Assembly (NCBI GenBank): GCA_965208105.1
Contig: OZ242318.1
Span: 3,264,001 to 3,328,000, forward strand
Direction: 5' to 3'
Source: Candidatus Latescibacterota bacterium
Lineage (GTDB): Bacteria > Latescibacterota > UBA2968 > UBA8231
DNA length: 64,000 bases
Shown: positions 1,923-61,997 of the stretch, in pieces
Layout: the number at the start of each line of letters is the position of its first letter
Numbering within the stretch: the first letter of the stretch is position 1
Translations under genes and position numbers: made by a program
Notes under the pieces: model-generated
What the model was told of the DNA's origin: nothing
What the model saw: only the letters and a program-made list of their open reading frames with translations
Databases searched by the model: none

Positions 1923-2924
1923 ATGATCCGGTATTCTGGAAAGCTCATATCCGCGCTGATTGCCATGGCCCTGCTCCTTGTGGCAGCACAAGGATTCGCC
2001 CAGACCAGAGAAGCCGGACCCTGGTGGCCGCACCCGGTCTGGGGCGGGGAGGACCAGGCAGGCGGCTCCAACTGGATAACTCCGGCCAAGGTTGTGGAAG
2101 CCGTCAAGCTCGTCGAAAGTGGAAAAATCTACGATATCGGCCAGGTCTACGAGCGTGGGATGCCGCTCTTTGGCGAGCGGACCTATTCCATGTTCATCCC
2201 GGGGGCGCCCACAGGCGGTCCTTTTGGAGAGAACAACATGCTGATGTACAACGACGAGTTTCTCTGCGCCGAGATCGGCCAGGTAGGCACCCAGTTCGAT
2301 GGCCTGGGTCACATTGGAACGCGGATGACGATGGCCGATGGCACGAAGCAGGATGTGTTCTACAATGGCTATACGACGGATGAGATGAAAGGGGCCTATG
2401 GTCTGCAGAAACTGGGGATAGAGCACGTTCGGACTTTCTTCACTCGAGGCATTCTGATCGATATTGCAGGGTACAAGGAGGTGGAGACCCTGGAGCACAG
2501 CTACGAGGTGACTGTGGCCGACGTGGAAGGCGCCCTGGAGAAGCAGGGCATGGCGCAATCCGGTATCAGGGATGGGGACGCTCTTTTCTTCAACTACGGC
2601 TGGTCAAAGTGGTGGACCAATCCTGACAAGTACAACACCAACCCGCCGGGAATCGGCCTGGAGGTGGCAGCCTGGATCGCCGGTAAGAATGCTTCCATGA
2701 TCGGCTCTGATCAGTGGACCACCGAAGTGGTGCCCAACCCCGATCCGAAGAAGGAATTCCCTGTGCACCAGGAATTGATCGTGAAGAACGGCATATTCAA
2801 TCTGGAGAACATGGTTTTCGAAGAACTGGTCGAGGACGGCGTCTACGAGTTTCTGTTCGTGCTCACCCCCATTCGCTTCAAAGGGGCGACAGGTTCTCCG
2901 GGGAGGCCCATAGCGATCCGTTAG
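1923..2924 (+). CDS. Secreted cyclase-family (kynurenine formamidase-like) metal-dependent hydrolase
   Basis: Signal peptide (..AQGFA-Q), motifs QVGTQFDGLGH, HQELIVKNGIFNLEN, GATGSPGRPIAI; AGGAGG RBS upstream. Confidence 0.85.
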   Translation: MIRYSGKLISALIAMALLLVAAQGFAQTREAGPWWPHPVWGGEDQAGGSNWITPAKVVEAVKLVESGKIYDIGQVYERGMPLFGERTYSMFIPGAPTGGPFGENNMLMYNDEFLCAEIGQVGTQFDGLGHIGTRMTMADGTKQDVFYNGYTTDEMKGAYGLQKLGIEHVRTFFTRGILIDIAGYKEVETLEHSYEVTVADVEGALEKQGMAQSGIRDGDALFFNYGWSKWWTNPDKYNTNPPGIGLEVAAWIAGKNASMIGSDQWTTEVVPNPDPKKEFPVHQELIVKNGIFNLENMVFEELVEDGVYEFLFVLTPIRFKGATGSPGRPIAIR

Positions 2925-3088
2925 TGTCCCCTCGCAGAGACAGGTTGACGAAATTGTGCCGCCTAGACGCCAGGCTCAAAAGGCGCCTGAGCGAGTCGTA
3001 GCAGTGGTGTACGGCGAGTGAAGGCAACGCCGTGAGCCGGAATGGATCGGTGGAAAAATGTTGACATATTTCTGCGATGGGACCCTGG
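2921..3088 (+). mobile_element. MITE-like element type A, degenerate copy (168 bp)
   Basis: Ungapped ~87% identity (hand count) to 34829-34996; ends TTAGTGTCCCCTCGCAGAGA...TTTCTGCGATGGGACCCTGG; its TAG is the stop codon of the cyclase gene. Confidence 0.85.
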
Positions 3089-3185
3089 TGCGGGGGTTGG
3101 CAGGCAGTTTCTGCAGGACCTTCCTTCCGCGGGAATCGGGACGGCAATCCCGGGTCCGTTTTTCCGTTGCACCAGGGGTCTGGGT

Positions 3186-4067
3186 TCAAAGGGCAAGGGT
3201 AGAAGGGGCGAGGATGATTTCGACCACACCAGTTTGGTGGCCTGGCGAAACGGAAGCCTCCGGTGTGACCTCGAAGTCGTGGCGCACGGCGAGCTGGTTG
3301 GCCAGCGCAAGAAGAAAGCCCGCGATAACCAGCCATTTCAGGCGGCTTCCGTGGCGTCCGCTGACCCCGCGCAGATAGAGATAGCTCGCATAGCTCAACC
3401 AGGTGGGCAAGGCCATCCAGATCTTGGTGTCGCGCGCTCCCAGGTACTCCCCCGGAGCTCCGAATAGCCAGACGACCCCCATTCCCAGTCCCAGAGTAAA
3501 GAGAAAGAAGCCGGCCCCGACGAAGTGATCCGTGGCGCTCGTCGCGGTGTCCAGGGCAGGCAGGTAGCGGTTCAGTCGGCCCTGCTTAAGGGAGCGCGCC
3601 TGAATCAGGTAGCTGACCGCGGCGCAGGAGGCCAGGGCAAATCCCACGTTTCCCAGCAGGGTGACTATCACGTGGATGCCCAGCCAGGGATAGTGGAGGA
3701 GGACGGATTCCGCCTCTGCAAAACGCAGCGGCATCAGCACGGGGTAGAGTAGCCCGAAAAAGGCAAGAGGCGCCGCCAGAAGGCTCAGGTGGCGGAAGGA
3801 TGTATAGTTCTCGACCAGTTGATTTACCACGAGCAGGGCGAGAATCGGCAGCGAAATGACGAAGAGCATATTTGAAAAAGGGGAGCTCGATGACACCAGG
3901 AAGTGGAGCAGCAAGGCAAGGACGTGAATGCCCATGCCGAGTTGCAATGTCTTCCGGCCCCAGAAGTTCCAGCCGTTCTTGCCCAACAGGAAGTGTCCCT
4001 GGAATAACAGGGAAGCGGCCAGGTAGAGAAAAAGAGGCAGGAACAAGATGGCTGTTTGCAATGTCAT
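3186..4067 (-). CDS. ccsA: Cytochrome c assembly protein (CcsA/HemX-like)
   Basis: About 8 TM segments, WLGIHVIVTLLG His motif, DTKIW..TWL.Y; directly downstream of hemA. Confidence 0.75.
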   Translation of the reverse strand: MTLQTAILFLPLFLYLAASLLFQGHFLLGKNGWNFWGRKTLQLGMGIHVLALLLHFLVSSSSPFSNMLFVISLPILALLVVNQLVENYTSFRHLSLLAAPLAFFGLLYPVLMPLRFAEAESVLLHYPWLGIHVIVTLLGNVGFALASCAAVSYLIQARSLKQGRLNRYLPALDTATSATDHFVGAGFFLFTLGLGMGVVWLFGAPGEYLGARDTKIWMALPTWLSYASYLYLRGVSGRHGSRLKWLVIAGFLLALANQLAVRHDFEVTPEASVSPGHQTGVVEIILAPSTLAL

Positions 4068-4078
4068 CGCGGAGTCAC

Positions 4079-5365
4079 CTACTTTTCTTCGTTCCCCTCT
4101 TCCGAAGTATCCAGGTTGAAAAGGCGCTGCACCGTGTCCAGTCGGATGTAGCCATCCTCGTCGTTGGCGAATTCACGGATCCTCACCAGGGGATCGTGCA
4201 GCAGCTTGTTGCCGTATCCTCGCAGGATCCCTTCAACTGACCTGAGGTCCTGCTCGGACAGATGGGATAATTTGGCCATCCATCGGTCCAGCTCCACCTG
4301 CCGGAGGACTTCGGCGCGCCGGCGCAACGCCTTTACCAGGGGTCCGGTTCCCAAGGCGTTGAACCACAGGAGGAAGTCGTGAATTTCTTCCCTGATCAGT
4401 TGTTGCACCTTGAGTACTTCCACCTCGCGCTCGCCGCGGTTGGACTCCACTACTTGTTTCAGGTCATCGATGTCGAAGAGAAAGACATTGTCGAGGTCCC
4501 TGACCTGGGGATCGATATCACGCGGAACTGCGATGTCGATGAGGAATAGAGGGCGGCTCCGTCGCAGGCGCATGGTTTGCCGCAGCTGGCTGGCAGGAAT
4601 AACGAAACCTGGAGCAGCGGTCGAGGAGATGACCACATCGACCTCCTGCAGCTTGACTGCCAGGTCGGCAAAGTCCACGGCTTCGCCGTCGATGCACCTG
4701 GCCAGCGATCTTGCCCGCTCAGGGGTGCGATTGGTCACGTAGAGGCGACCGATTCCACTATCGACCAGGTACTGGGCGGTGAGTTCGCCCATCTTGCCCG
4801 CGCCGATGAGCAGAGCACTGCGGCTGTCCAGGGAATCAAAGATCTGGCAGGCAAGTTCCACCGCCGCCGTGCCGACCGACAGGCGGCCGCGGCCGATATC
4901 GGTTTCGGTGCGGGCGCGCTTGCCCACGCGGAGAGAGCGCTGAAAGATTTCGTTCAAGAGGAGACGGGCAGACCCGTTTTTCTGGGCCATTTCCAGAGCG
5001 TCGCGCACTTGCTTGAGGATCTGGGATTCGCCGATGACAAGTGAATCGATGCCGCAAGCTACGCCGAAGAGGTGCTTGACTGCATCTCCGTCGCTGAATT
5101 CGTAGAGGTGGGGTTTGAGTCGGACAGGGTCGACGCCATGAACTTCGGCGAGGAATGCAAAAGCTCCCTCCAGGCTCTTGCCGGTGTCGCACGCTGCATA
5201 TATTTCCCATCGATTGCAGGTGGAGAGGAGAGCGGCTTCGGGCAGACCGCAGCGCTCGGTCAACTGTGACAGAACCTTGCGCTGGAAGGCCGGCGCTGCG
5301 GCGAACCATTCGCGGATTTCTATTGGTGCAGTCCGGTGATTGAGCCCGAGGGTGAGTATGTGCAC
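4079..5365 (-). CDS. hemA: Glutamyl-tRNA reductase
   Basis: Motifs GLNHRTAP, LSTCNRWEIY, GIDSLVIGESQI, GAGKMG, DIAVPRDID. Confidence 0.97.
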   Translation of the reverse strand: MHILTLGLNHRTAPIEIREWFAAAPAFQRKVLSQLTERCGLPEAALLSTCNRWEIYAACDTGKSLEGAFAFLAEVHGVDPVRLKPHLYEFSDGDAVKHLFGVACGIDSLVIGESQILKQVRDALEMAQKNGSARLLLNEIFQRSLRVGKRARTETDIGRGRLSVGTAAVELACQIFDSLDSRSALLIGAGKMGELTAQYLVDSGIGRLYVTNRTPERARSLARCIDGEAVDFADLAVKLQEVDVVISSTAAPGFVIPASQLRQTMRLRRSRPLFLIDIAVPRDIDPQVRDLDNVFLFDIDDLKQVVESNRGEREVEVLKVQQLIREEIHDFLLWFNALGTGPLVKALRRRAEVLRQVELDRWMAKLSHLSEQDLRSVEGILRGYGNKLLHDPLVRIREFANDEDGYIRLDTVQRLFNLDTSEEGNEEK

Positions 5366-5440
5366 GGCAAGGTCGACGTCGGGGATTGAGTCATGCGAAA
5401 TGTGGATTCTAAAGGTAGTAAAATGTGGTGGGAATACCAG

Positions 5441-6883
5441 TTAGGAAGGATTGCCGGAATGAGAACCGGTTGCCTGGCAGGGAGGTTTGCCCAAATCTCC
5501 GGCTATGCGGTCGCCAAGTGCCCGGGAGTGCTCGATGCAGTTGGGGACCGAGATGCCGCCGCGGAAGTTCCCCCCAAAGTATAGTCGGGGGTGCCTGGCT
5601 TCGAAGGCATCGAGGGAAGTCGTGAATTGCTGGTATCCTGGTCGGTACTGGGGGATGGCTCTGGACCAGCGAACTACCTGGACTTCGTCCGGCGAGGCCT
5701 GGATGCCCAACAGAAATTCCAGTTCCTTCCGCACCATGTCTATGAGAGGGCCATCCGGCAGCGTTGCGTTTTCGGGTTGTCGAACACCTCCCACGAAGGT
5801 CGTAAGGGCGGCGCCTCCCTCCGGCGCACGTCCGGGGAACAGCGTGGAGTTCCAGATGGTGCCCAGAATCTGGCGTTGCTCGCACTGTGGAACGAGGAAG
5901 CCGAAACCGTCCAGGGGCCGGCCACCCGGATGGTCCTTATAGCCGCAGAAAACTACGGCAACCGGCGGGTAGTGGACCTGTTCGAGGGCGCTTCCGATGG
6001 GAAAGTCGAAAGGGAACTCCAGGTGTGCGTAGGCATGTGCGGGGATGGTGAAGGCAAGGGAACGGGTATGGAGCTGCATTGCTGCATTCCCCGAGTGCAG
6101 ATCGAGCAGGTATCCCCCGTCCATTGGTTGCACGGACTTCAAATTCGCTCCGGTATGAATGGCATCGCCGAGCCTTTCTTCCAGGGCGTCGATTAATGTC
6201 TGCAGGCCTTCTCGAAAGGAGAAGAGGCGTGCTCTTCGCATGGAAGCCGCGCCCCGCCGGTGGCGTTTGAAGGCGGCGAGTATTGCTCCCTTGAGGATGC
6301 TTCCGTGTTTCTGTTCCAGGAAATACAGCCAGGGGAAGGCGCTTCTGGCACTTAATTCCTCCGGGACTCCGGCGTAAACCCCTGCCACGAAGGGATTGAC
6401 TCCGTAGTCGAGGAACTCGCGTCCAAGGCGCCGCTCGACAAACGCTGCCAGGGTCTCCTCGGCATCTTTGGGGGCCGGTCTTGCGAAAGGTTCCCTCAGC
6501 AGGCGGGCTTTGGCGCGCGCCGAGAAGAGCTTGCTGGAGACCAGCCCGGGGAGGCTCGTGGGCAGGGGGTGCAGGGCACCACCGCGGACTATATAGCGGA
6601 ACCTGGCTTCTGAACTGGCGAATAGCCTGGACGACTCGATTCGGAGGTCGGTGAAAAGTCGGTGCAGCAGCGGGGAGGATTCGAGCAGGGCGCTGGGACC
6701 GTGTTCTATCAGGAAGCCATTGGCCCGGGTGGTGCGGATGGCGCCGCCAACCCTTTCGCCGCGTTCGATTACGCGAACATTCAGACCCTTGCCGGCCAGG
6801 TAGTAGGCGAGTGCCAGTCCGGAAATGCCCGCGCCGATTACGGCCACATCCGTCCTCCGACACCCGAGCCCGGGGTCACCCAT
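5441..6883 (-). CDS. hemY: Protoporphyrinogen/coproporphyrinogen oxidase (HemY type)
   Basis: GAGISGL FAD motif, RVGGAIRT, EHGPSA, GFGFLVP, AIPQY. Confidence 0.92.
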   Translation of the reverse strand: MGDPGLGCRRTDVAVIGAGISGLALAYYLAGKGLNVRVIERGERVGGAIRTTRANGFLIEHGPSALLESSPLLHRLFTDLRIESSRLFASSEARFRYIVRGGALHPLPTSLPGLVSSKLFSARAKARLLREPFARPAPKDAEETLAAFVERRLGREFLDYGVNPFVAGVYAGVPEELSARSAFPWLYFLEQKHGSILKGAILAAFKRHRRGAASMRRARLFSFREGLQTLIDALEERLGDAIHTGANLKSVQPMDGGYLLDLHSGNAAMQLHTRSLAFTIPAHAYAHLEFPFDFPIGSALEQVHYPPVAVVFCGYKDHPGGRPLDGFGFLVPQCEQRQILGTIWNSTLFPGRAPEGGAALTTFVGGVRQPENATLPDGPLIDMVRKELEFLLGIQASPDEVQVVRWSRAIPQYRPGYQQFTTSLDAFEARHPRLYFGGNFRGGISVPNCIEHSRALGDRIAGDLGKPPCQATGSHSGNPS

Positions 6884-8000
6884 CTTTCCTTTTTCCAGCC
6901 GGCGGCAGGAGGGTGAGGCATTCCCGTCGCAGAGAGAGGAGGATCTTTTCTCCTGGATCGAGGGATAGGGGTATGTAGGCGTGGCGCGAAAACCGCACTT
7001 CCACTTCGTGACCGTTTTTCAGGCGCACCTGGAGGCTCTCAAAGTTGGCGTTGCGGGACCGGGAGGTGATGTTTCCCTCGACCTGATTGTGGCTGACCGC
7101 GTCCATCAGCGGCCGGTCCGGGTATATGATCTTGATATCTTCCGGTTGAATGTAGACCGTCACCTCCACATTCCCCGGGAGAGGTTGGACCGGGGCGTGC
7201 AGTCCGAGTCCGTCCCAATCCAGTACCAGGCCTGCTTCTCTTGCCGCGACGACCCGGGCGCGAAAGAGGTTCCTGATGCCCATGACCTCGGCCACTTGAT
7301 GGTCGGCGGGGTAGCGGAAGACCTCGTCCACCGGGCCGATCTGGCGGATGCGGCCTTCCTGCAACACGGCGAGGCGGTTCCCCATGGCGAATGCGTCGTC
7401 CAGGTTGTGGGTTACGTAGATTACAACCAGGCGCAGTTCCCGCTGCAGTTGACCCAGCTCCTGCTGGAAGCGCTGCCGCAGGGCGAGGTCCAGGGCGGAA
7501 AATGGTTCATCGAGCAGGAGTATCCGGGGTTCGATGGCCAGGGCCCGGGCAATGGCCACGCGCTGCCGCTGGCCGCCGGACAGTTCGTGGGGGCGGTGTC
7601 CTGCCAGGTGAGCCAGGCCCATCCTGTCCAGAAGCTCACGGGCGCGCTGATGGCGGTTTTTCCCCCCCGTTCGGGGATAGGCTACGTTCTCCAGGGCCGT
7701 CATGTGGGGAAAGAGGGAGTAGTGTTGGAATACGTAGCCTATGCGGCGGCGGCGCGGTGGCAAATTGCAGCTAGGACCGTCGCGATGGCGGCGAAAGAAG
7801 AGTTCGCGGTCGAGGCTGATTTCGCCGGCGTCCGGATGGTTGAGGCCGGCGATTGCGTTGAGGGTGGTGCTCTTGCCAGCCCCCGATGGGCCATAGAGAA
7901 CGAGGACCTCAGTGGCCGCCTCGAACCGGACATTCAGGGAAAATCCACCCAGGCGTTTTTCGATATCGATATTGAGGCGGTTGCGATCTTTGTCATGCAT
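6876..8000 (-). CDS. modC: Molybdate ABC transporter ATP-binding protein
   Basis: Walker A GPSGAGKST, LSGGQRQR, LLLDEPFSALD, TOBE-like C-terminus; follows modB. Confidence 0.88.
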   Translation of the reverse strand: MHDKDRNRLNIDIEKRLGGFSLNVRFEAATEVLVLYGPSGAGKSTTLNAIAGLNHPDAGEISLDRELFFRRHRDGPSCNLPPRRRRIGYVFQHYSLFPHMTALENVAYPRTGGKNRHQRARELLDRMGLAHLAGHRPHELSGGQRQRVAIARALAIEPRILLLDEPFSALDLALRQRFQQELGQLQRELRLVVIYVTHNLDDAFAMGNRLAVLQEGRIRQIGPVDEVFRYPADHQVAEVMGIRNLFRARVVAAREAGLVLDWDGLGLHAPVQPLPGNVEVTVYIQPEDIKIIYPDRPLMDAVSHNQVEGNITSRSRNANFESLQVRLKNGHEVEVRFSRHAYIPLSLDPGEKILLSLRRECLTLLPPAGKRKDG

Positions 8001-8679
8001 GGGTCCGCTCTTCGGCCGCTGGAACGGCCGCTTCAGCACGCCGGAAGGGTTCCAGACGGCGAACGCACCACAAACTCATAAAACCCAGGACTGTCATCAA
8101 TAGGACCATCTGGTGAGCCAGACCGTATTGGCTGTCCTGTACGGCATCGTAGATTGCAAGGGGCAAAGTCTGGGTCTTGCCTGGAATGTTTGCGGCGACC
8201 ATCAGTGTGGCGCCGAACTCTCCGAGGGCGCGGGTGGAGCCCAGGACCAGGCCCGCCAGGATTCCTCTCCGGCTCAGGGGAAGGGTGATGCGCCACATCA
8301 CCTCGAGCTCGGTGGAACCCAGGGTGCGCGCTGCATGCTCGAGGTCGGGATCGACGTTGGCGATGGCCGACCGCGCGGCCTGGAACATCAATGGAAGGCC
8401 AACCACGGTGGAGGCGATCACCGCCGCCGGCCAGGTAAAGAGCAGGTTCCAGCCGAACAAATGGGCGAAGGGACCGTCCCTCCCCAGAAGTATGAGGAGG
8501 TAGAAGCCCACCACGCTGGGCGGCAGAACCAGGGGCAGATGGATTGCCGTCTCCAATATTGTCTGACCGCGGAATTGATGGCGGGCGAAGAATATGGCCA
8601 GGACCAGGCCGATGGCGAAGATCAGCAGCGTGGCTGCCGAGGTTACCTTCAACGAAAGGAGGAGAGGGTGCCAGCTCAT
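7993..8679 (-). CDS. modB: Molybdate ABC transporter permease
   Basis: LPLVLPPSVVGFYLL, RALGEFGATLMVAANIPGKTQTLPLAIY; start ATG overlaps the modA stop (ATGA). Confidence 0.93.
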   Translation of the reverse strand: MSWHPLLLSLKVTSAATLLIFAIGLVLAIFFARHQFRGQTILETAIHLPLVLPPSVVGFYLLILLGRDGPFAHLFGWNLLFTWPAAVIASTVVGLPLMFQAARSAIANVDPDLEHAARTLGSTELEVMWRITLPLSRRGILAGLVLGSTRALGEFGATLMVAANIPGKTQTLPLAIYDAVQDSQYGLAHQMVLLMTVLGFMSLWCVRRLEPFRRAEAAVPAAEERTHA

Positions 8680-9485
8680 GGGTTCAGTGAATCCCGAAGT
8701 GGTAGAAGACCGTATTTTTCCATGATGGATCGAGCCTGGGGGGTATTGACATAGGCGGCGAAACTGCGTGCCTCCGTCGGATGCGCCGAGGATCTTATCA
8801 CCGCCAGGGACTGGTAGGGAGGGCTGTAGAGATCCCCGGGAACCGCTACCCAGCGGCCCTTGCCCGGTCTGCACAGGGAGCGGGCGGCGAGGGCGGCGTC
8901 GACGTTGCCGCTTTCTGCATAGTGCATGGCCTGGCGCACGTTCCGGCCCATGACGAGTTTGTGCTGGAGCCGGTCCCAGAGACCGGCGCGCTGTAGTGCC
9001 TCGCGGGCAGCTATGCCATAGGGGGCGTGCACGGGGTTGGCCATGGCAAAGCGCTTGAGCTCCGGTCGCAGCAGGTCACCGAGGCTCTTCAATGGGAGCG
9101 GACTGTCCGGCCGAGACCAGATGACGAGCTGGCCGCGGCCAAAGCGAGTGACGGTGTCGGGTGCTATGAGGTCTTTGGCGGCAAGGGTGTCGATGTAGGC
9201 GGAACTGGCCGATGCAAAGAGGTCAACCGGGGCGCCTTGTTGGATCTGGTGGGTCAGCTTGCCGCTCGAGCCAAAGTTGCATATGACTCTGATTCCGCTT
9301 TGTTGCTCGAAAAGGGCGGAGAGTTCCTGAAATGCAATGGTGAGGCTGGTCGCAGCGGAGACGGTCAGGGTGGGGCTTGGGGCCGTGTGGTTGCGCGAAC
9401 AGCTGCAGGTGAGAAGAAATGGAAATAGGAGGATCAGGTACAGGTAGATTGTTCGGATGCTATGTAGATTCTCAGGCGGACACAT
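8676..9485 (-). CDS. modA: Molybdate ABC transporter substrate-binding protein
   Basis: SAATSL, FGSSGKL, GAPVDLFASA, ANPVHAPYG; lipoprotein-like N-terminus. Confidence 0.93.
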   Translation of the reverse strand: MCPPENLHSIRTIYLYLILLFPFLLTCSCSRNHTAPSPTLTVSAATSLTIAFQELSALFEQQSGIRVICNFGSSGKLTHQIQQGAPVDLFASASSAYIDTLAAKDLIAPDTVTRFGRGQLVIWSRPDSPLPLKSLGDLLRPELKRFAMANPVHAPYGIAAREALQRAGLWDRLQHKLVMGRNVRQAMHYAESGNVDAALAARSLCRPGKGRWVAVPGDLYSPPYQSLAVIRSSAHPTEARSFAAYVNTPQARSIMEKYGLLPLRDSLNP

Positions 9486-9885
9486 GGGAGTTGGAAACGC
9501 AATTGGAATTGGACTCTACGGCCTGCTCCGAAAGCCGATCCGGGGTTGACTGCAACGGAGGTGCTCCGCGGTTTGACTTGCAGTGAATTCCTCAATTGAA
9601 TCTACGTAAAATTTTCGCCTGCAGAAACCACGGGGAAGGCGGCAAAACCGGCGGCTCGGAAATCTCCGGGCGCCGTGATTCAGTCCATGTTCGAGGAGGG
9701 GAAACTGGGTCTGGTCTCAGGGAAAGTCAACGGCATACTCTCGGCGGCGCAAATGGGCTTTTCTCGAGTGGCTGGGAAAAGCTCGCCCTGATGTGCTCTG
9801 CATTCAGGGGTCACGAGGAGTGTTGACGGTGCGCAACGAGAGATTTACTTTGCTCGACGCGTATTTCCAAATGGCCGGAGGGACA

Positions 9886-10052
9886 CTAGTGCCTGCTTGC
9901 GTAAGTAAGCGTACGAACGAGGGCGCAGAAGCGCCCGGCTCGCAAGGCGCCTGAGCGAGTCGTACCTGGAGTGTACGGCGAGGGAGGGCAACGCCGCGAG
10001 CCGGGATGCAGCGGAGGCCGAATTCACGCGGAATTGCGCAAGCAGGCACTAG
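9886..10052 (+). mobile_element. MITE-like element type B (167 bp)
   Basis: Perfect 16-bp terminal inverted repeats CTAGTGCCTGCTTGCG...CGCAAGCAGGCACTAG; 165/167 identical to the reverse complement of 61831-61997. Confidence 0.92.
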
Positions 10053-10153
10053 ATGGAATCTTGCCGAGGTTTCTTGGATTGAACCGGCGGTGAGACTCGA
10101 GATGGGGTGCTGAAGGTGTGCTGCCGATCCCCCGTGAAGAACAGAGGCAATTG

Positions 10154-10552
10154 ATGATGAAACAGGTGATTGTCTACGACGGCGAGTGCCGTTTCTGTCT
10201 GTGGAGTGTGAGTCGGATCGAAAGACTCGACCGCCGGAGGCAATTCGAGTACCTGCCGCGCCAATGTCCGGAGGTGGAGCAGCGCTTCCCGTTTTTGGCC
10301 GATGCCGATTTCAACACCGGCCTGCGGCTGGTGGTTGACGGTGAGAATGTCTACGTCGGGGCCGATTCGGTGTACCAGATATATCGCCGCATACCGCCCT
10401 TCCATCTGGTCGCCTGGCTCTACCGATTGCCAATCCTGGACAGAATGGTGAAATGGTGCTACGCATTCATTGCCCGCAACCGCCATCGCTTCGGCAAGGT
10501 TGAATGTGACACTGGCACTTGCTCTCCAGTCAAATCTGCTTCCAGGACCTGA
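10154..10552 (+). CDS. DCC1-like thiol-disulfide oxidoreductase (DUF393)
   Basis: N-terminal IVYDGECRFC and C-terminal YAFIARNRHR motifs. Confidence 0.88.
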   Translation: MMKQVIVYDGECRFCLWSVSRIERLDRRRQFEYLPRQCPEVEQRFPFLADADFNTGLRLVVDGENVYVGADSVYQIYRRIPPFHLVAWLYRLPILDRMVKWCYAFIARNRHRFGKVECDTGTCSPVKSASRT

Positions 10553-10652
10553 GGTCCCCCGAGGGAACCCCCGTTGGTTTGCCGCCATCCGAAAATTTGA
10601 TCACGCCCTTCGATCCGGCGCGAAAGTTCCGGAACTCTCCTGCTGACAAGCC

Positions 10653-12290
10653 TCACCATCCGAGGGCATAGCCGTCCCGCCTGGGGTCCGCACCACCCAT
10701 GAAGGATCCTGTGTCTGCGTCGACGGCGATGCCTTGACCGCCTCCCAACATGGCGGACCAATCTCCCACCAGGTTGAATTGGTGGCCCATGCTTTGCATC
10801 TCTTCAATAACCCCGGGGGAGATACGTGTCTCTGCGTCGATCGTGTAACCGGGAGAGGTGATTTTTGCTCGCGCGGCCTCAATGGCCGCCTGGATGTTCA
10901 TGGAGTGGTCGAGGAAATTCATAATCATCTGCGGTGTTGTCTGCAGGATGCCGTAGCTGCCCGGAGTTCCTATGAGAAGGCGCAGGCCGTAGTCGTCCCA
11001 GATTTGGACGGGGGACATGCACATTTCGTTCTTCTTGGATGGTCCTATGGCATTGGGGCTGCGGGGTTCCAAATCGAACCAGTTCATGAAGTTGTTCAAG
11101 GCGATACCGGTGCCGGGCACGACCATGCCGGAGCCGAAGGCCGAGCCCAGGCTTTGGGTCACCGCGACGGCATTCCCGGCGGAATCGATCGCATCGAAGT
11201 GGGTCGTGCACTCGGTGGTCATCCATGCATAGGGGTCGCCGGCAAGCACCTCTCCCGGCATTTTGACAGCCGTGTAGCGCTCGCCGCCGCCGGGCTGGGC
11301 GCGGCTGCCGATCAGTTGGCGCCGGGCGTTGGCGAATTTCTTGGAGAGGAGGCCTGCCGCAGGTGGGTCCGGTATGGCCGCGAACTCGGCCCGGTCGGCT
11401 GTGGCCAGCTTGGCCGCTTCGATGAAGCGGTGAAGAGTCGCGCTGGAGTTGTGGCCCATTTCGCCCACATCGAACCCCTCCATGATGTTGAGGATTTCCA
11501 GATACTGGACGGCCTGGCAAGGGGGTGGAGGGGCATAGATCCGGTAGCCGCGGTAGTCGGTGCAGACAGGTTCGAGCCAGGCTGGCTGGAATGATGAGAG
11601 GTCTTCGCTGCCGAGGAGGCCGCCGGCCTCGGCCATATGGCGGCAGATGCGGGCGGAGATCTCTCCCTGGTAGAAGATTTCGGGGCCCTCCGCCGCAACG
11701 AGGCGCAGGGTACGCGCAAGGTCCTGTTGCCGCAGCACTTCGCCGGGCCTCGGCGGCTTGCCGTCGAAGAGATAGTTGGAAGCTGAGGAAGAGTGAGCCA
11801 GGAGGAGGTGCAGCTGCTGCTCGAAGAATTCGCTGTTCTTAACCGTCAGGGCAAAGCCCTGTTCGGCATACTCGATGGCCGGTGCAAAGACGGTGGCGGC
11901 GTCCATGCTGCCGTAGCATTCAAGGGCCTCGAGCCAGCCGCCACAGGCGCCGGGCACTATGGGCGAAAGTGGACCGCGCAGCTCGTTTTCCGTCGGCTCG
12001 TAGAGTTTCAGGTCCGCAGACCCGGGTGTCAGTCCAATGTAGTCGAGCACTTTGTGCTCGTTGCGGGCGGCACTGTAGATGTGCATGTAGCCAATTCCGC
12101 CGATGCCGGACATGTAGGGCTCGACCACGTTGAGGGCGGCGGCGGTGCCCACGGCTGCGTCTATGGCGTTTCCGCCCTGTACGAGGATGCGCAGACCGGC
12201 TGCGGAGGCGAGAGGATGAGCGGAGGCGACCATTCCGCGCCGTCCGGTCACTGTCGATCGATGCGCCGTCCCCTGCACGGAGAAGGCCAT
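10653..12290 (-). CDS. ggt: Gamma-glutamyltransferase family protein
   Basis: GGNAIDAA, VVEPYMSGIGG, CTTHFDAID (autocleavage Thr), GTPGSY, GADPRRDG. Confidence 0.93.
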   Translation of the reverse strand: MAFSVQGTAHRSTVTGRRGMVASAHPLASAAGLRILVQGGNAIDAAVGTAAALNVVEPYMSGIGGIGYMHIYSAARNEHKVLDYIGLTPGSADLKLYEPTENELRGPLSPIVPGACGGWLEALECYGSMDAATVFAPAIEYAEQGFALTVKNSEFFEQQLHLLLAHSSSASNYLFDGKPPRPGEVLRQQDLARTLRLVAAEGPEIFYQGEISARICRHMAEAGGLLGSEDLSSFQPAWLEPVCTDYRGYRIYAPPPPCQAVQYLEILNIMEGFDVGEMGHNSSATLHRFIEAAKLATADRAEFAAIPDPPAAGLLSKKFANARRQLIGSRAQPGGGERYTAVKMPGEVLAGDPYAWMTTECTTHFDAIDSAGNAVAVTQSLGSAFGSGMVVPGTGIALNNFMNWFDLEPRSPNAIGPSKKNEMCMSPVQIWDDYGLRLLIGTPGSYGILQTTPQMIMNFLDHSMNIQAAIEAARAKITSPGYTIDAETRISPGVIEEMQSMGHQFNLVGDWSAMLGGGQGIAVDADTGSFMGGADPRRDGYALGW

Positions 12291-12386
12291 TGGACAGATC
12301 TCCTTTCGGGATATAGGTTTTCGCAAAGCATAAGTGAGTAAATCGCAAAGGTCAAGTACTCCTGACCAGAGGCGGGAGGGAAATTC

Positions 12387-13430
12387 ATGTCAGGAAAAAT
12401 CGTGGATCTGAGAAGCGATACCATCACCTTGCCGACGCGGGAAATGATGGAGGCCATGGCTCGGGCTCCGCTGGGTGATGATGTTTACAACGAAGATCCC
12501 ACCGTCAACCGGTTGCAGGAATTGGCGGCCGCAAAGATGGGGATGGAAGCCGCTCTCTACGTCCCCAGCGGGACCATGGGGAATACCTGCGCCCTGCTGG
12601 CCCACACCTTTCCGGGACAGGAGGTCGTCTTTGAAGAGTTTTCCCATATGTACAGGTTTGAATCCGGGGCATATGCCAACATTGCCGGATTGTCCGCCCG
12701 CCTCGTCAAGGGCCGTCACGGCATTATCCGCCCCGAACAGCTGCAGGAATGCATCGAGGGATGCGGCGCGCGTTTTTCTGAACTGAGGTTGGTGTGCATT
12801 GAAAACACCTATAACTTCAGCGGGGGCTCGGCCTGGACGCCCGGAGAGGTGGAAGCCGTTTCCGAGGTGGCAAGGAGAAACAACCTGAAGCTGCACGCGG
12901 ACGGGGCGCGCATTTTCAATGCTGCCGTGGCTCTCGGCGTGGATGTGAAGGCTTATTCGCGGCATCTGGATTCGATAATGTTTTGTCTTTCGAAGTCCCT
13001 GAGCGCCCCGGTGGGGTCGTTGTTGTGCGGTAGCCGCGCGTTTATCGATAGAGCTTGCCAAATGCGCAGGCGCCTGGGCGGTGCCATGCGCCAGGCTGGT
13101 GTGTTGGCCGCGGCCGGAATCGTGGCTCTCGAAAAAATGGTAGACCGTCTGGCTGAAGATCACGAGAAGGCGAGGTTGCTTCGCGAAGGGTTGCAAGCCA
13201 TTGATGGGCTCGAGTTGTCCATTCCTCCCGTATCGACCAATATGGTCATAGTGGACGTGAAGAAGCTGGGCTGGAGTTCCGAGGACCTGTGTGCAAAGTG
13301 GAAGGCCTGCGGCATTCTGGGCGTTATGCGGCCCCCTACCCGGTGCCGCCTGGTTGCCCACAGGCATACTACCATGGAAGAGGTTGACTACGTGGTAGAA
13401 AGTACGAGCAGGCTGGTCAGTGCAGGGTGA
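12387..13430 (+). CDS. ltaE: Low-specificity L-threonine aldolase
   Basis: DLRSDTIT, GDDVYNEDPTV, PSGTMGN, HADGARIFNA, CLSKSLSAPVGS, GGAMRQAG. Confidence 0.92.
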   Translation: MSGKIVDLRSDTITLPTREMMEAMARAPLGDDVYNEDPTVNRLQELAAAKMGMEAALYVPSGTMGNTCALLAHTFPGQEVVFEEFSHMYRFESGAYANIAGLSARLVKGRHGIIRPEQLQECIEGCGARFSELRLVCIENTYNFSGGSAWTPGEVEAVSEVARRNNLKLHADGARIFNAAVALGVDVKAYSRHLDSIMFCLSKSLSAPVGSLLCGSRAFIDRACQMRRRLGGAMRQAGVLAAAGIVALEKMVDRLAEDHEKARLLREGLQAIDGLELSIPPVSTNMVIVDVKKLGWSSEDLCAKWKACGILGVMRPPTRCRLVAHRHTTMEEVDYVVESTSRLVSAG

Positions 13431-13535
13431 TCCTTGATGTGAGTCCCGGACGAAATGTCCTGTAGAGGCGGGGTGCCTCGCCGTCGGGGGCCATTCAATC
13501 AACCGGGTAGAGATCTTATCGGGTCAGTTTTCGAG

Positions 13536-16004
13536 ATGAAGGGATATGGACCAGGCCGGCTTCGAATGGGAAGTCTGGCTGTTTTTTTAGGTTTGGCCGT
13601 CGGTGTATGGACCTTGATGGAAGGAGCCGGCCGGTGGGAGGTGCGGGCCGCTGCGGGGGCAGCAGGAGGTAATTTGAAGAATGCGGATGGGTCGTGGAAG
13701 TACACCAACAACCTCGCCGGCGAGACCAGTCCATATTTGCTGCTCCACGCGCACAATCCGGTGAAGTGGTATCCCTGGGGAGCGGAGGCCCTAAACCGGG
13801 CCCGCAGGGAGAACATGCCCATCTTTCTCTCCGTTGGGTATTCCACCTGTTACTGGTGCCACGTAATGGAGCGGCTGGTCTTCTCTGACGAGGAAATCGC
13901 CGCCTTGATGAACGAGTGGTTCGTCAACATAAAGGTGGACCGGGAGGAGCGGCCGGATATAGATCAGATCTATATGAACGCCACCTATCTCATCAGCGGC
14001 CACGGAGGCTGGCCGAACTCGGTCTTTCTGACCCCGAACCTCGAGCCGTTTTTTGCCGGGACCTATTTCCCGCCGGAGGATTCGCAGCGTCTGCCGGGTT
14101 TTCCGCGCGTCCTGAAGGCTGTGCACAGTGCCTGGAATGATCGCCGCAAGGAGGTCCTGGAGATGGCCGCGCAGATGGTGTCGGAGATACGCCGCCTGGA
14201 GGAAGGAGAGCAGGGCCTGGCCGTGGAATTCGATCCGGAGGTGGCGAACCAGGCCCTCGGCAGGATAATGGAACTCTACGATGGGCGCAGTGGTGGCTTT
14301 GGAGGCGCGCCCAAATTCCCTCCCAGCATAAGGCTGGAGTTTTTGCTCTCCGCCTGGGAGGAAAGAGGAGACGAGCGCGTCCGCGAGATCGTTTCCCACA
14401 CCCTCGATGCCATGGCCCAAGGCGGCATTTACGATCAGGTGGGGGGTGGATTCCACAGGTATTCGACCGATGCTCGATGGCAGATTCCGCACTTTGAGAA
14501 AATGCTTTACAACCAGGCCCAGCTTGCCCGGACCTACCTGCGCGGATATCGAATTACCGGGGCGGAGCCATGGCGGCGCGTGGCCGAGGAAATTTTCGAG
14601 TTCGTGCGCCGCGAGATGACCTCGGAAGCCGGGTCCTTTCATTCCGCCCTGGATGCAGAAACGGAGGCGGTGGAAGGGAAATACTACCTGTGGACGGCGA
14701 AGGAGATCGAAGAGGCGCTGGCAGAGGAGGCCAGGCTGTTCTTCGAAGTCTACGAGTTGGCTCCAATGCCCGAGGAGGAGGGTGGAGTAATCTGCATGAA
14801 AAGGTCCCTGGAGGAGGCAGCCAAGGGCCTGGGGATGGATTCGGCCGCCCTCCGAAGCGAGGTAGAGATTTTGATGGGCCGTCTGCTGAATGTCCGCTCA
14901 AGGCGAACCTATCCGCTGCTGGACGACAAGGTGTTGACTGCGTGGAACGGCATGATGATAGATGCCTACTCCATGGGGTACGGAATCCTGCGGGAGCCAG
15001 CCTACCTTGGCGCGGCCGTTGCGGCGGCCGAGTTCGTCCTGGAGAATCTGCGGATGCCTGACGGCAGTTTGAAGCGGGTGTACCGCCTGGGACAGGCAAG
15101 GTACGATGCTTATCTGGAGGATTATGCCTACTTCTCTCAAGGACTTTTCAGTCTCTACCGGACCACCGGAGAGGAGCGCTGGCTGAAGGCCGGACGCGGG
15201 CTCGTCGACCAGATGATAAGGAGGTTCTGGGACGAGGAAGAAGGAGGGTTCTTCTTTGCGGAAGGCGGCGCGGACCTCATCGTGCGCAGCAAGAACGCCA
15301 GGGATTCGGCCCTGCCTGCGGCCAACGCCGTGGCCGTGCACTGCCTGCTGGATCTGGCGCGGTGGACGGATGAGGAAATTTATATGGAAAAGGCGCGGAA
15401 GACCCTTTTCGCCTTTGGTGGAATGATGAGAAACCGTCCGTCCAGCTTCATTCACATGATCGCCGCAGCAGATAAACTGATTGCAGGAAAAGTGGTTGAG
15501 CCAGATAATGCAGCGATGGACGGGCTGCCACCCGTGGAGGTGATTGGACTGCCACCTGCAGCTGTGATTCCCCCGCAGAATCTGGTCGATGCCCGGGTGG
15601 TTCTCTCAGAGGAGAGGCCGGCAGCGGGTCAGAATTTCAATATTGCGGTCCACCTCGATATCAGCGCAGGTTGGCACATCAACGCCCACCCCGCATCCGA
15701 TGAAATGCTCATTCCTACCTCGCTCACCCTGAACGCGGACCTTCCCATGGAAATAGTCGATGTAGTATATCCGCCATCCGAACCGCTCTACCTGGCGGCC
15801 CTGGGTGATACCCTCGAGGTGTACAAGGATCAGGTCGTCCTGCGCGCGGACCTGCGGATGAAGGAGGAAGCGGTAGGCGGACAGAAGGGTGAGTTGCGTC
15901 TGCTGGTGCAGTACCAGGCCTGCGACGAGATGCGCTGTTTACCCCCGGCCGAGCTGGACAGGGCGATAGTCGTGGAGGTGGCGGCCGAGGGGAGTGGACC
16001 TTAA
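13536..16004 (+). CDS. YyaL/SSP411-type thioredoxin-domain protein (DUF255) with C-terminal DsbD-N-like domain
   Basis: [54 protein letters not shown]; C-terminal GWHINA...[12 protein letters not shown]; start codon uncertain. Confidence 0.85.
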
Positions 16005-16005
16005 A

Positions 16006-16061
16006 AGCCCGTTGAAAAAGTCCATCCGGCCTCGCCTGCAGAGCAACTTTATCAACGGGCT
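16006..16061. repeat. Short inverted repeat, likely a collapsed MITE (type C); may act as a terminator between convergent genes
   Basis: AGCCCGTTGAAAAAGT (16006-16021) pairs with ACTTTATCAACGGGCT (16046-16061), 15/16; begins right after the TAA stop. Confidence 0.6.
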
Positions 16062-16117
16062 GTCAGGGCAGCCAGGCCGTGGAATCAGGCCCCCGGCAAA
16101 GGCGCCCCAGATTATAG

Positions 16118-17164
16118 TTACGTCAGTTGCCCTGCGCAGGAACTGCCGGATCCGGCAGTGCAGCCATAGCAGTGATCGGCAAGCGCAATGGGGCCTTGGT
16201 TGAATATATCAAGGGAATCTGTGGACCAGATAGTACGGGGCTCGTTGGCTGCGGGGATCTCCGCCATCTGGTTGAAGTCGCAGTCGTAGATCCGGCCATC
16301 CCAGCCTATGGAGATGAGGTCGCGGCACATGACGTTTTCCAGGGCCCTGGTGTTGAAGTGGCTGACCATCATGGTCATATACTCCTCGAGCCTGTTCATG
16401 TGCACGAGGTCATAGAGGAAACGCTTGATCGGCATATTGGCGATGGTGAAGAGTTTGTTGAACTCGATGCCGAAGTCCTCCAGAAGTTTTCCCTTGTAGT
16501 CCCTTTCCAGTTCCTCCTGGTCCGGGGGCAAAAAAGGCCCCACCGGATTGTAGACGAGGTTGAGGATGAGCCCCGTGTCCGGTTTGCCGTATCCCAGGCT
16601 GTTGAGGAGGTGAAGGGCCCTGATGCTCTTGGCGAACACCCCCTGGCCGCGCTGTCTCTCCACGTTGTCCCTGGAATAGCAGGGCAGGGATGCTACGATC
16701 TCGACCTGGTGGTCCCTCAACAATTGAGCGGTATCACCCTGCCCGGGCTCGAGGAGGACGGTTAGATTGCAGCGGTCGATTACCTTCAGACCCCGGCCCC
16801 TTGCTTCCCTGACCAGGTAGGGGAATACCGGATTGAGTTCGGGAGCGCCTCCCGTGAGATCCACGGTTTCCAGGTGTTCGCCGCCGGAGGCATCCAGGAG
16901 TTCCACGATGCGCCCGGCGGTTTCCGGGCTCATTTGCTCCTTGCGCAGAGGGCTGGCTTCGACATGGCAATGCCGGCAGGTCTGATTGCACCGCATGCCG
17001 ACATTGACCTGGAGGACGCGCAGAACTCGGCGTCGAAGGGACAACCGGTTCCGGGCGAGGGTATGGGAAAACGACGGCCAACTGCCGGTGAGCAGATGTC
17101 TGGATGACCCGGGCGTCTCAGTGTTGGTCCGCGGCAGTGTCTGGGACATAATGACTTTGACCAT
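16118..17164 (-). CDS. arsS: Radical SAM protein, ArsS/DUF3641 type
   Basis: QVNVGMRCNQTCRHCHV, DLTGGAPELNP, VIDRCNLT, ASLPCY, YDCDFNQM, HCYGCTAGSGSSC. Confidence 0.85.
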   Translation of the reverse strand: MVKVIMSQTLPRTNTETPGSSRHLLTGSWPSFSHTLARNRLSLRRRVLRVLQVNVGMRCNQTCRHCHVEASPLRKEQMSPETAGRIVELLDASGGEHLETVDLTGGAPELNPVFPYLVREARGRGLKVIDRCNLTVLLEPGQGDTAQLLRDHQVEIVASLPCYSRDNVERQRGQGVFAKSIRALHLLNSLGYGKPDTGLILNLVYNPVGPFLPPDQEELERDYKGKLLEDFGIEFNKLFTIANMPIKRFLYDLVHMNRLEEYMTMMVSHFNTRALENVMCRDLISIGWDGRIYDCDFNQMAEIPAANEPRTIWSTDSLDIFNQGPIALADHCYGCTAGSGSSCAGQLT

Positions 17165-17217
17165 GGAGGAAGACGCAGAAGGATACCATCATTGATGCCT
17201 CGTGGCAAGGATCTCCC

Positions 17218-18150: not shown

Positions 18151-18159
18151 GCCCTGACT

Positions 18160-18852: not shown

Positions 18853-19079
18853 TTCTTCGTTCCTGTGGACAAGGGTGGTTTGCCTTCGGATGCATCGTCG
18901 ATGATCGAATTTCAAGAGCCGATTATAGTGTAATAGTTGCGAAAGGAAGTTGCGAATATTTTCTACGAAGCTGCAGACTGCTTGTGGGGGATGTATACGG
19001 TTGGCGCCCAGCTTTCTATCAGGGAGGTCCTGCCGTATATTTAGCGGTTGCATCACATCGGGGATCACAGGAGGAGATC

Positions 19080-34996: not shown

Positions 34997-35012
34997 TGCC
35001 TGTCACGGGCTG

Positions 35013-56644: not shown

Positions 56645-56773
56645 CTAGTGTTGCGTCCCAGAAATATGTCGCCATTTTTCCGCCGATCCATCCCGGTTCA
56701 CGGCGTTGCGCTCCCTCCCCGAATCCCCTCGATTCGCCTCGGCGGCCCAATTTCGTCAACCTATCTCTGCTAG
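56645..56773 (-). mobile_element. Internally deleted/variant MITE type A (129 bp)
   Basis: CTAG at both ends; the reverse complement carries GCAGAGATAGGTTGACGAAATTGGGCCGCCGAGGCG and GCAACGCCGTGAACCGGGATGGATCGGCGGAAAAATGGCGACATAT of type A. Confidence 0.85.
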
Positions 56774-60465: not shown

Positions 60466-60579
60466 AGGCCGGTTCCCGCTTTGAGAGTGGGGCAGGGTTG
60501 GGCTGGTCCGCGGCATTCGGAAACTGAGGCGACATGGGCGCTCGAATGCCTGGCCCGCTTTGGGGTGCAGCTCAGCGGA

Positions 60580-61834
60580 CTAGTGGTTCATCCATGTAGT
60601 AGTGCTGGATATAGGCGGTGCAGCTTGATGCGCGCATCGTCGGTGGTGAATTGCCATTTGACCCTTGCGGGGCACTTCTCGCGTTGTGCCAGCCAAGCGT
60701 GGACCTGTTTGCTCAGTTGCTGAATGCTACCGATGCGCCGGTCGAGACACTGACGGGTGAGCACCCTCAACCCGATTTCGGCCATATTGAGCCAGCTGCC
60801 TCGTTTCGGGGTGAAGTGGATGTCGATTTTATCGGCGATGTGTTTGGCTTCTTCGGGCGCAAAGACGTCATACAAGGCGGCCTTTCTGTGTGAACTCAGG
60901 TTGTCCATGACCACGGTGAGGGTATCGGCCTCCGGGTAGTAGCGATCGACCAGATCTTTGATCACCTGAGCCCACTCTTTGCTGGTGCGGCGCTGCGTGA
61001 CCTGGACGTGGCAACGACCGGTGAGCGGTTCCAGCATCATGAATACGTTGGCCACGCCGTTGCGGACATAGTGATGATCATACCGGGCCGGATGTCCGGG
61101 CATCGCCGGGAGAGGCGCCTGCACCTCTCCCACCAGTTGTTTGCTGGTCTCGTCCAGGCATACCGTGGGACGGTGGGGATCGTAGGGTCGGGTATAGACA
61201 TCCAGCACATCCTCCATGGCACAGACAAACTCGGCGCTGGGGGCGCCGGGCAGGCACCACATTTCCTGCCGCCAGGGCTTCAAGTCGTTTTTTTTAGCGT
61301 CTTGCGGACCGTTTCCGGGCTGACCCGGTTGACCACCTGCAACGAAACCAGGTGGTCGGCCAACAGTCTGAGGGTCCAGCACGTCCTCCCCTCCGGCGGC
61401 GGGCTACAGGCCAGGGCTACCAGACGAGCCTCCGCTTCCCCGTCGATGGTCTTGGCCCGGCGATTCGTTTGCTCCTTGCGTTGGAGGGCGGCCTCCAGGC
61501 CTTCTTCGACGAACCGTTTGCGCAGCCGCTCGACGGTGCTGGAATGGACCTCGAGCGCCTGACCGATCTGTTCGTCGGTCCAGCCGTCCCCGTGCGGTCC
61601 TTGATCCGTCTTGAGAAGAATCCGCGCATGGCGCTGCTTGAACGCAGCGGCTTTCCCCTTGGAGATGAGACCGTGCAAATAGCTGCGCTCCTCGGCAGTA
61701 AGTGTGACGAAGTATCTCTTCTTGGGCAACGCCGTACTCCTTTCCCGACAAAGGGGATCCGTAGAAAAAGATACGGCATGTCCACCAGGATGTACAGATC
61801 TTTATTCTGCAATACTACATTGACCGACCACTAG
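60580..61834 (-). mobile_element. IS630-family insertion sequence, apparently complete
   Basis: Imperfect TIRs CTAGTGGTTCATCCATGTAGTAGTGCTGGATA / CTAGTGGTCGGTCAATGTAGTATTGCAGAATA (25/32); CTAG at both ends, consistent with a TA duplication; encloses two transposase ORFs. Confidence 0.95.
60588..61729 (-). CDS. IS630 transposase (OrfA 61280-61729 plus OrfB, joined by -1 frameshift)
   Basis: OrfA HTH (ARILLK.D, WTD..I, CS.PP.GR..WTLRLLA); OrfB DDE (CLDETSK, VMDNL..H, SWLNMAE); A8 run at 61288-61295 at the junction. Confidence 0.92.
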
Positions 61835-61997
61835 TGCCTGCTTGCGCAATTCCGCGTGAATTCGGCCGCCGCTGCATCCCGGCTCGCGGCGTTGCCCTCC
61901 CTCGCCGTACACTCCAGGTACGACTCGCTCAGGCGCCTTGCGAGCCGGGCGCTTCTGCGCCCTCGTTCGTACGCTTAATTACGCAAGCAGGCACTAG
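61831..61997 (-). mobile_element. MITE-like element type B (167 bp), inverted relative to 9886-10052
   Basis: TIRs 20/21; shares its left CTAG with the IS630 end and its right CTAG with the sat stop codon. Confidence 0.92.

Follow-up and report, generated by a model that had tools for sequence, protein, structure and literature searches.

A conserved core with a predicted fold, joined to different IS630-type ends, in miniature elements from a Latescibacterota genome and from other bacterial phyla

The question raised by a 64,000-nt stretch of the genome of a Candidatus Latescibacterota bacterium (contig OZ242318.1 of assembly GCA_965208105.1) is why a group of small mobile elements should keep the same middle and have different ends. 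The elements are miniature transposable elements with inverted repeats (MITEs). MITEs are normally seen as deletion remnants of a parent insertion sequence (IS); they are defined by their ends, and the interior is considered to be junk. In the elements described here the middle is the conserved part, and it is predicted to be a structured module with covarying stems and invariant non-canonical positions. The whole stretch of 64,000 nt is called the window; it is G000:C1:3264001-3328000 of a genome (G000) of 4.85 Mb, which is in one contig and has 61.6% G+C.

Copies of the core and the ends that flank it

A first-pass annotation of the window had reported four MITE copies of two types, A and B, each 167-168 bp long. 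Inspection of the sequence confirmed the coordinates and lengths of all four, as follows (bit scores are those of a covariance model, R1):

2921-3088, plus strand: A1, a decayed A-type MITE copy of 168 bp; core at 2967-3044; ends TTAG...CTGG; R1 match at 2959-3052, 65.4 bits
9886-10052, plus strand: B1, a B-type MITE copy of 167 bp; core at 9931-10008; 79.9 bits
34829-34996, plus strand: A2, an A-type MITE copy of 168 bp; core at 34875-34952; 78.5 bits
61831-61997, minus strand: B2, a B-type MITE copy of 167 bp; core at 61875-61952 on the minus strand; 79.5 bits

In a full-length alignment of the four copies the centre is near-invariant and the arms are very different. An ungapped alignment of the cores at 34875-34952 and 9931-10008 has 70 identities in 78 positions (89.744% by blastn), the same 78-bp core and the same count that the annotation had given. 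It had also called the arms of the two types unrelated. This was overstated: the arms are distant, but the left-arm consensus sequences of A and B are equal at 23 of 44 positions and at 18 of 39 beyond the common TAGTG (ungapped, our own count). No chain of intermediates between the A and B arms was found. The flanks C|TA...TA|G are present on A2, B1 and B2, and a degenerate pattern of the invariant bases matches the window four times, compared with an expectation of 0.00 from 100 shuffles.

With the A2 core as the blastn query, the 78-nt core has 125 matches in the genome, and four of the further copies are 100% identical across the core. Both counts lie well above chance. The annotation had proposed that the end types around the core be tabulated. 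When 60 nt on each side of the core were scored against A and B arm references, 92 copies have A ends on both sides and 15 have B ends on both sides; two combine a B left end with an A right end, and one has an A left end and a B-like right end. The other 15 of the 125 copies are truncated or have other ends, mostly B-like. R1 has 138 matches in the genome at E<=0.01 (150 candidates scored), and these include a third end set, type E (TA|GCAGCCCGTTGATAAAG...), with at least 16 copies. The stem sequences of the type-E core differ from those of A and B, but the loop bases are identical. The tabulation thus gives three end sets and a few hybrids among the genome copies.

The MITE family is 165-168 bp long, non-coding and multi-copy. 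The B copies are young; they diverge from their consensus by 0.3-1.4% and have the junction C|TA in 15 of 15 copies and TA|G in 14 of 15. The A copies are older, with arms that are 5.3-6.3% divergent, a core that is 3.5% divergent, C|TA in 65 of 92 copies and TA|G in 45 of 92.

IS630 elements prefer CTAG insertion sites. The genome has 13 matches to the DDE_3 domain (PF13358), and its resident IS630 of 1,162 bp (9 copies; terminal inverted repeat (TIR) GTGCTCTGTTAAGGA...) has C|TA...TA|G junctions in 9 of 9 copies. To judge from these sequence features, the small elements are IS630/Tc1-mariner-type MITEs with TA flanks, which would use CTAG as their insertion site; this agrees with the annotation, which had called their ends IS630-like. 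The 9-copy IS630 was rejected as the parent of A or B because its termini differ, and it does not have the E termini either. The same holds for a second IS630 element, located next to B2 in the window:

60580-61834, minus strand: an autonomous IS630-family element; DDE_3 transposase at 60591-61382; own TIR GTGGTTCATCCATGTAGTA...

This element and B2 have the TA at 61832-61833 in common, and its transposase frame is split. A 1.55-kb IS110-family element that adjoins A ends was also rejected as the parent of A or B, as it has other termini.

IS with A-like and B-like ends are present in the genome of a sister species of the same genus (G001), which has 34 DDE_3 matches. Two IS from this genome, ISa and ISb, were each defined from three copies. 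ISa is 1,174 bp long, has about 23 copies and has an intact frame of 360 amino acids with a helix-turn-helix (HTH) and a DDE_3 domain; ISb is 1,398 bp long, has 7 copies, and its HTH and DDE_3 are in two frames. The A left arm agrees with the right end of ISa at 25 of the first 32 nt and at 19 of 26 beyond CTAGTG (ungapped, by eye), and the B right arm agrees with the left end of ISb in 21 of 23 columns with two 1-nt indels (by eye). Autonomous elements with A-like or B-like ends, which the annotation had suggested looking for, are thus found in G001 and not in G000: ISa and ISb are missing from G000, where ISa has a single match, of 64 nt, and ISb has none, and orphan A and B termini are present. 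A third pairing comes from genome G020, in which the core is joined to arms like those of the 9-copy IS630 of G000 (element L031).

The core was not found in ISa or ISb; the best match inside them has 11.6 bits and an E-value of 0.14 (R1 with filters off). The core also has no match to Rfam or to any IS that was examined, which speaks against its being a fragment of a known IS or repeat family. By sequence comparison, then, one interior is combined with the ends of at least three autonomous IS630 families and is a piece of none of them.

Spread and predicted fold of the core

In a BLAST search with the A element, 15 of 41 genomes from the class gave matches, many of which span the core alone. 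The elements of these relatives, fetched with their flanks, have at least eight different arm sets. When 121 genomes sampled from the phylum were searched with R1, 34 had the core (20 of 40 in group f1, 11 of 13 in f4 and 0 of 29 in f2). With one genome per species, the invariant-base pattern found at least 117 loci in at least eight phyla. The taxa of 80 of these loci, assigned from record titles, are as follows:

Actinomycetota (Nocardioides, Marmoricola and soil metagenome-assembled genomes (MAGs)): 23 loci
Pseudomonadota, mostly Gammaproteobacteria: 19 loci
Latescibacterota: 13 loci
Firmicutes (Faecalibacterium, Gemmiger, Ruminococcus, Eubacterium): 9 loci
Gemmatimonadota: 6 loci
'Deltaproteobacteria' / Deferrimicrobiaceae: 3 loci
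Planctomycetota: 2 loci
Acidobacteriota: 2 loci
Rhodothermaceae: 1 locus
Unclassified: 2 loci

The 'Deltaproteobacteria' MAGs with the core are represented by L086 and L089. At least three of the pattern loci (L076, L079 and L091) look like chance matches in coding sequence; nearly all of the others have a spacing of 50-53 nt and are located within inverted-repeat elements. A strict element test, which asked for a flanking TA at either end and for a 14-nt TIR (three mismatches at most) inside the 110-nt flanks, was passed by 40 of the 107 fully flanked matches among the at least 117 loci, and the termini of these 40 form 14 clusters. Matches that failed the test include elements with decayed ends and longer elements. 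The length of the strictly scored elements is 160-170 bp in 38 of 40, across phyla and terminus types, and this near-constant length hints at a geometric constraint.

Some genomes, of cultured and uncultured bacteria, have many copies. By R1 an Arhodomonas isolate has at least 133, Nocardioides soli DSM 105498 at least 61 and a Planctomycetota MAG at least 150; Gilvimarinus algae has 6 and a Faecalibacterium MAG has 4. One match, of unusual length (58 nt), came from viral contigs, and blastn of the A element against plasmids was negative. Near-identical type-E elements are present in MAGs labelled Gemmatimonadota and Latescibacterota (L056, L060, L080 and L123 versus L068, L093, L122 and others); either they were recently transferred between phyla that share a habitat or these are binning errors.

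The predicted fold of the core alone has a free energy of -45.5 kcal/mol (z -5.4) on the plus strand versus -34.3 kcal/mol (z -2.2) on the minus strand. For the whole element a very stable hairpin is predicted, with -107 and -96 kcal/mol (z -12 and -8). According to these models, the module of 80-95 nt would be a rod-like single-strand hairpin. P1 comes first, then a P2a of 2-3 bp, an AA(C) bulge and P2b; after these come a conserved loop, P3 and an apical loop that varies. The conserved loop is 5'-GA-N-CG / 5'-AG-N-GA, with the possible pairs G·A, A·G, N-N, C-G and G·A. The seven consensus differences between the A and B cores leave this fold almost unchanged: three are in the P3 loop, one compensatory pair is changed, one U-A pair becomes U·G, and one is in the N-N pair (G·U to G·G).

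Two alignments were compared with the fold. In the first, which consists of 27 sequences from the relatives, 88.1% of the cells are paired versus 31-38% in slid controls, 15 of the 25 pairs show double-sided changes, and none of 500 shuffles attains the score. The positions that are most conserved in the relatives are the non-canonical and unpaired ones, that is, G28 A29 n C31 G32, A62 G63 n G65 A66 and the GC-AA-CG bulge; an unpaired CA is also among the most conserved bases. The second alignment has 45 sequences from different phyla (the two window types, two relatives and 41 of the 46 representatives that remained after de-duplication; five near-duplicate Latescibacterota types were left out). 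The representatives were chosen with a crude P1 filter, which dropped many true elements and was used for this choice only. Here 80.4% of the cells are paired versus 27-42% when slid, and there are 226 double-sided cells versus 86±7 in shuffles (0 of 500). RNAalifold run on these 45 sequences agrees with the proposed structure, and the two 'n' positions of the loop covary (GC in 21, CG in 10, GU in 3 and AU in 2 of 45). On the predicted fold, the core has the covariation by which a structured non-coding RNA is recognized. An Rfam gathering scan of the window returned a tRNA only, and E-value scans against Rfam 15, with A2 and with 16 loci taken from relatives and from other phyla, gave no score close to gathering level.

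The annotation had suggested that the core is a functional, structured module that moves between different IS630-like end sets. The modular reading is supported, and where it had covered two end sets in one window it can be widened to a superfamily that crosses phyla. As for structure and function, the fold is conserved with compensatory changes, and a function is suggested by that conservation.

Recombination, strand and the possible role of the core

Several copies of the element are mosaics. In the hybrids with B and A ends and in two copies with other left arms, the core switches from the B state to the A state between core positions 12 and 37, and one element of G001 (L027) has an A-type interior within B arms. 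The window itself contains two pieces that the annotation's list of four, all real, had not included:

56645-56773, minus strand: a chimeric, partly deleted copy of 129 bp; A-type arms around P3 and the 3' half of a type-E core
about 16002-16065, minus strand: a core-less type-E derivative; both E arms joined directly, as judged by comparison with type-E copies

The joints of the chimera are located in words common to A and E, CCGAGGCG and GCAACGCCGT (by eye), and it has a weak R1 match at 56681-56762 (14 bits). The stretch 15950-16700, around the core-less derivative, has 18 blastn matches in the genome, of which the best are arm matches of 42-46 nt, and the derivative has a very high depth in metagenome contigs. 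In the Arhodomonas isolate (L178-L181) the element is about 270 bp long with the TIR TA|CTAATCCGATCACAGGTAATGCC and has two core modules, and in one of four copies the second core is inverted, as if the stem arms had acted as recombination sites.

These hybrids and mosaics show that the core has recombined between end sets. The movement between end sets that the annotation had proposed fits the data no better than an ancient common descent in which the ends tracked their transposases.

Since recombination within the core is proven by the hybrids and mosaics, one can ask if the core needs a function at all. Its apparent conservation would then come from frequent recombination or gene conversion between the families of one genome, from horizontal transfer and from hairpin-templated correction of quasi-palindromes, and stems would stay paired without selection. 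The duplicated and flipped modules of the Arhodomonas element (one of four inverted) and the near-identical type-E elements in MAGs labelled with two phyla also fit such an explanation. However, correction of this type would erase mismatches and bulges, yet in the relatives conservation is highest at just such places (the G·A positions, the AA bulge, the unpaired CA), which argues against template-directed perfecting of a palindrome. In addition, the loop bases are the same from Firmicutes to Actinomycetota while the stems are completely different, and homogenization within a genome cannot explain this. With the strand asymmetry described next (G·U 45 versus A·C 10), which also speaks against it, we consider the absence of any function to be very improbable.

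The plus strand folds better in 40 of the 45 lineages. In the P1 and P2 pairs of these lineages there are 45 G·U versus 10 A·C pairs; the sequences are related, and so p-values overstate this difference. Within the genome the sporadic G·U and A·C pairs are 28 versus 27, with two fixed U·G pairs set aside. An asymmetry at the level of lineages points to a single-stranded active form, either a transcript or one DNA strand. It also bears on the suggestion that the core is a double-stranded DNA site, bound as a duplex by the transposase or by a bending nucleoid protein that brings the ends together, like the integration host factor (IHF) site of the Correia element. Central protein-binding sites have been described in bacterial MITEs (PMC2229807), and internal sequences tune the mobility of plant MITEs (PMC9921582). 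The constant element length of 160-170 bp in 38 of 40 strictly scored elements would also fit a duplex site, as if geometry mattered. However, such a site would have no need of compensatory changes in three stems, and tolerance of G·T on one strand only would be unexpected, so that a duplex site is, in our estimate, hardly probable.

The location of the copies raises another possibility. With a self-trained open reading frame (ORF) caller (2,749 ORFs, 74% coding), 136 of 141 copies are intergenic and five are inside called ORFs. Convergent gaps are enriched, as they hold 50 of the 136 copies (37%) versus 19% of all intergenic gaps, and divergent gaps are depleted (12 of 136, or 9%, versus 19%). 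The orientation relative to co-directional neighbours is 30 same and 44 opposite, which is not significant (p=0.13). One could imagine from this placement that the core is an RNA element that benefits or spares the host once it is transcribed in the 3' regions of genes; it might then be a barrier to decay, a site of processing or a hairpin like a terminator, as described for REP and ERIC. The very stable hairpin predicted for the whole element would be suitable, and there is a precedent in ERIC, which is reported to create an RNase E site and to alter the decay of upstream mRNA (PMC3184786). The copies have no orientation bias relative to co-directional genes, however, although the fold is strand-asymmetric; they also drift neutrally, and their distribution is patchy and resembles that of a mobile element (34 of 121 genomes). 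The 3' placement is explained equally well by the purging of insertions in promoters. A host-level role is thus quite unlikely.

What remains conserved is the lineage. Purifying selection seems to act on element lineages, when a new family or copy is founded, and the resident copies seem to drift neutrally. Selection at this stage would imply a role in the element's own propagation. From this conservation we infer that the core probably acts in cis in the propagation of the element, as a folded single strand. The active form may be RNA, which we put forward tentatively; single-stranded DNA is a weaker possibility.

The events can be pictured as follows. The terminal arms of about 30-45 nt would have copied, or converged on, the ends of one autonomous IS630-family element, and they would be the part that is recognized by the matching IS630 transposase. 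The central module of 80-95 nt is absent from those IS and would be kept by purifying selection on lineages. Most likely it would raise the success of a non-autonomous element, either through better mobilization by an IS630 transposase or through a better tolerated insertion. As all of the families in a genome have the same module, homologous recombination inside it would reshuffle arms and cores and yield hybrids. The A and B families of G000 would be fossils, whose partner IS are gone and whose copies decay neutrally.

How the core might act is more speculative. One idea, which we regard as unlikely, is that it is a portable 'mobilization aptamer', in which a transcript or a single DNA strand, once folded, would bind IS630 transposases at a conserved surface or would bind a universal host factor. 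Such an aptamer might tether the enzyme to an element that does not encode it, overcome the cis-preference of the transposase and be combined with the ends of any resident IS630, although this too is doubtful. If it worked with any IS630 transposase, this would explain why there are dozens of end sets in at least eight phyla.

A number of points weigh against a role of the folded core in propagation. P3 is poorly aligned across phyla, with 48.9% of its cells paired. Part of the loop-base invariance in the cross-phylum set is built in, since the scan pattern asked for these bases, and the free tests in that set are the stems and the N-N pair only; the alignment of relatives was not selected by pattern, yet the near-invariance of its loop bases is the same. 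The sequences are related, and therefore the shuffle and binomial significance is overstated. Single copies have neither an orientation bias nor a strand-biased drift, which leaves the fold unlinked to host gene expression. Transposition of IS630/Tc1-mariner elements in vitro is known to need the transposase alone (PMC2170065), so that a cis-acting enhancer is not required by the mechanism.

The annotation had proposed to look for empty CTAG sites in related strains. At the site orthologous to that of A2, G001 lacks the element and has a 68-nt filler between the same two CTAGs; at the A1 site it has another element, which is strongly diverged and similar in length. In four DNA runs for window positions 1-20000, where contigs break at repeats, no contig was found to span A1 or B1. 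The CTAG sites show turnover between G000 and G001, and the observed alleles are not clean empty sites. A1 is also present in a related strain of the metagenome runs X5/X6, and the contigs there end inside A1.

If the core does promote mobilization, it would be the first cis-acting 'enhancer' that Tc1/mariner-type elements of bacteria have in common, and it would correspond in bacteria to the conserved cores of SINE (short interspersed element) superfamilies in animals. If it is an aptamer, it would be a parasite-of-parasites module with an evolutionary history of its own. The core is directly testable in cultured carriers, namely Nocardioides soli DSM 105498, the Arhodomonas isolate and Gilvimarinus algae. 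The module is also a strong new annotation marker for a widespread class of repeats that break short-read assemblies and attract other IS.

Related repeat families and neighbouring features

The closest concept to this core is the conserved central domain of animal SINE superfamilies. The CORE-SINEs, V-SINEs and Deu-SINEs are non-autonomous superfamilies in which a central domain is conserved and the parts recognized by the enzyme differ by family. Animal SINEs are retroposons with tRNA-like heads and tails derived from long interspersed elements (LINEs), whereas the elements described here are cut-and-paste DNA elements with IS630 ends. We know of no structure with covariation in SINE cores.

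Among bacterial repeats, the IS630-derived MITEs RUP of Streptococcus pneumoniae, Nezha of cyanobacteria and MITEEc1 are likewise small, non-coding, TA-flanked and multi-copy. Their TIRs resemble a resident IS630-family element, they are mostly intergenic, and they form long hairpins. These families are defined by their ends, however, and they are not reported to have an interior in common. Here one structured interior has at least three end sets in one genome, at least eight in the family and at least 14 across phyla. The core is absent from the matching IS.

ERIC is a TA-flanked enterobacterial MITE (PMC3184786). ERIC/IRU and the present elements are alike in that both have a rod-like hairpin and are TA-flanked MITEs. 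Six ERIC copies of the K-12 chromosome have the outer frame of the core, that is, the stem, AAGGCG ... GCC-AA-CGC and loop words of the GAGCGA/GAGTGA type. However, the interior of ERIC is longer, and its loop words are in the opposite order around the hairpin. R1 has no match in the K-12 chromosome at E<=10, and with filters off five of the six ERIC loci score 5.4-10.0 bits, which is no better than background. ERIC was therefore rejected as a member of the family, because its R1 scores are at background and only the outer frame is alike; it is possible that ERIC is a distant relative.

BOX (boxA-B-C), BIME/REP and Correia elements (with a central IHF site) are also mosaics of separable modules with central functional motifs. 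They differ in that they have another mobilizing enzyme or none that is known, and each is known from one lineage only, without a cross-phylum module. The REP/BIME unit is a palindrome of 20-40 nt with a GTAG head and an associated RAYT gene, whereas a TA-flanked 166-bp element with TIRs is present here. The annotation had also likened the core to Rickettsia palindromic elements, which insert in frame within genes; of the 141 copies here, five are inside called ORFs. In the literature that was searched, which included PMC11602168 and PMC3184786 and did not cover subscription journals or supplements, no core common to MITE families is described, and two 16-nt strings from the core do not occur. 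The IS630-type MITE is a known kind of element; a conserved, structured and exchangeable core appears to be undescribed.

Other IS are located at the ends of these MITEs. The IS110-family element mentioned above (domains DEDD_Tnp_IS110 and Transposase_20, 1.55 kb) is present at G000:C1:181884-183440 and in 11 further copies. It is located exactly at an A-type terminus (...GGGACAC^TAG) in 10 of the 12 copies, and in the other two it follows similar ...ACAC words. This looks like sequence-specific homing into the MITE end. The 9-copy IS630 also adjoins A copies, at G000 positions 392970 and 756669, and CTAG sites made by MITE ends seem to attract further IS630 insertions. Directly past A2, at 34993-35016, the sequence CTAG-TGCCTGTCACGGGCTG-CTAG has 16 nt between two CTAGs and starts like a MITE terminus; it is possibly a footprint or a solo end.

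Elsewhere in the window, a tRNA gene at 44740-44822 is the sole Rfam match at gathering level. The segments 7534-7590 and 13340-14670 have a very high summed depth and many loose ends of metagenome contigs, and their repeats in the genome are weak. They are probably conserved coding segments that are shared with other members of the community.

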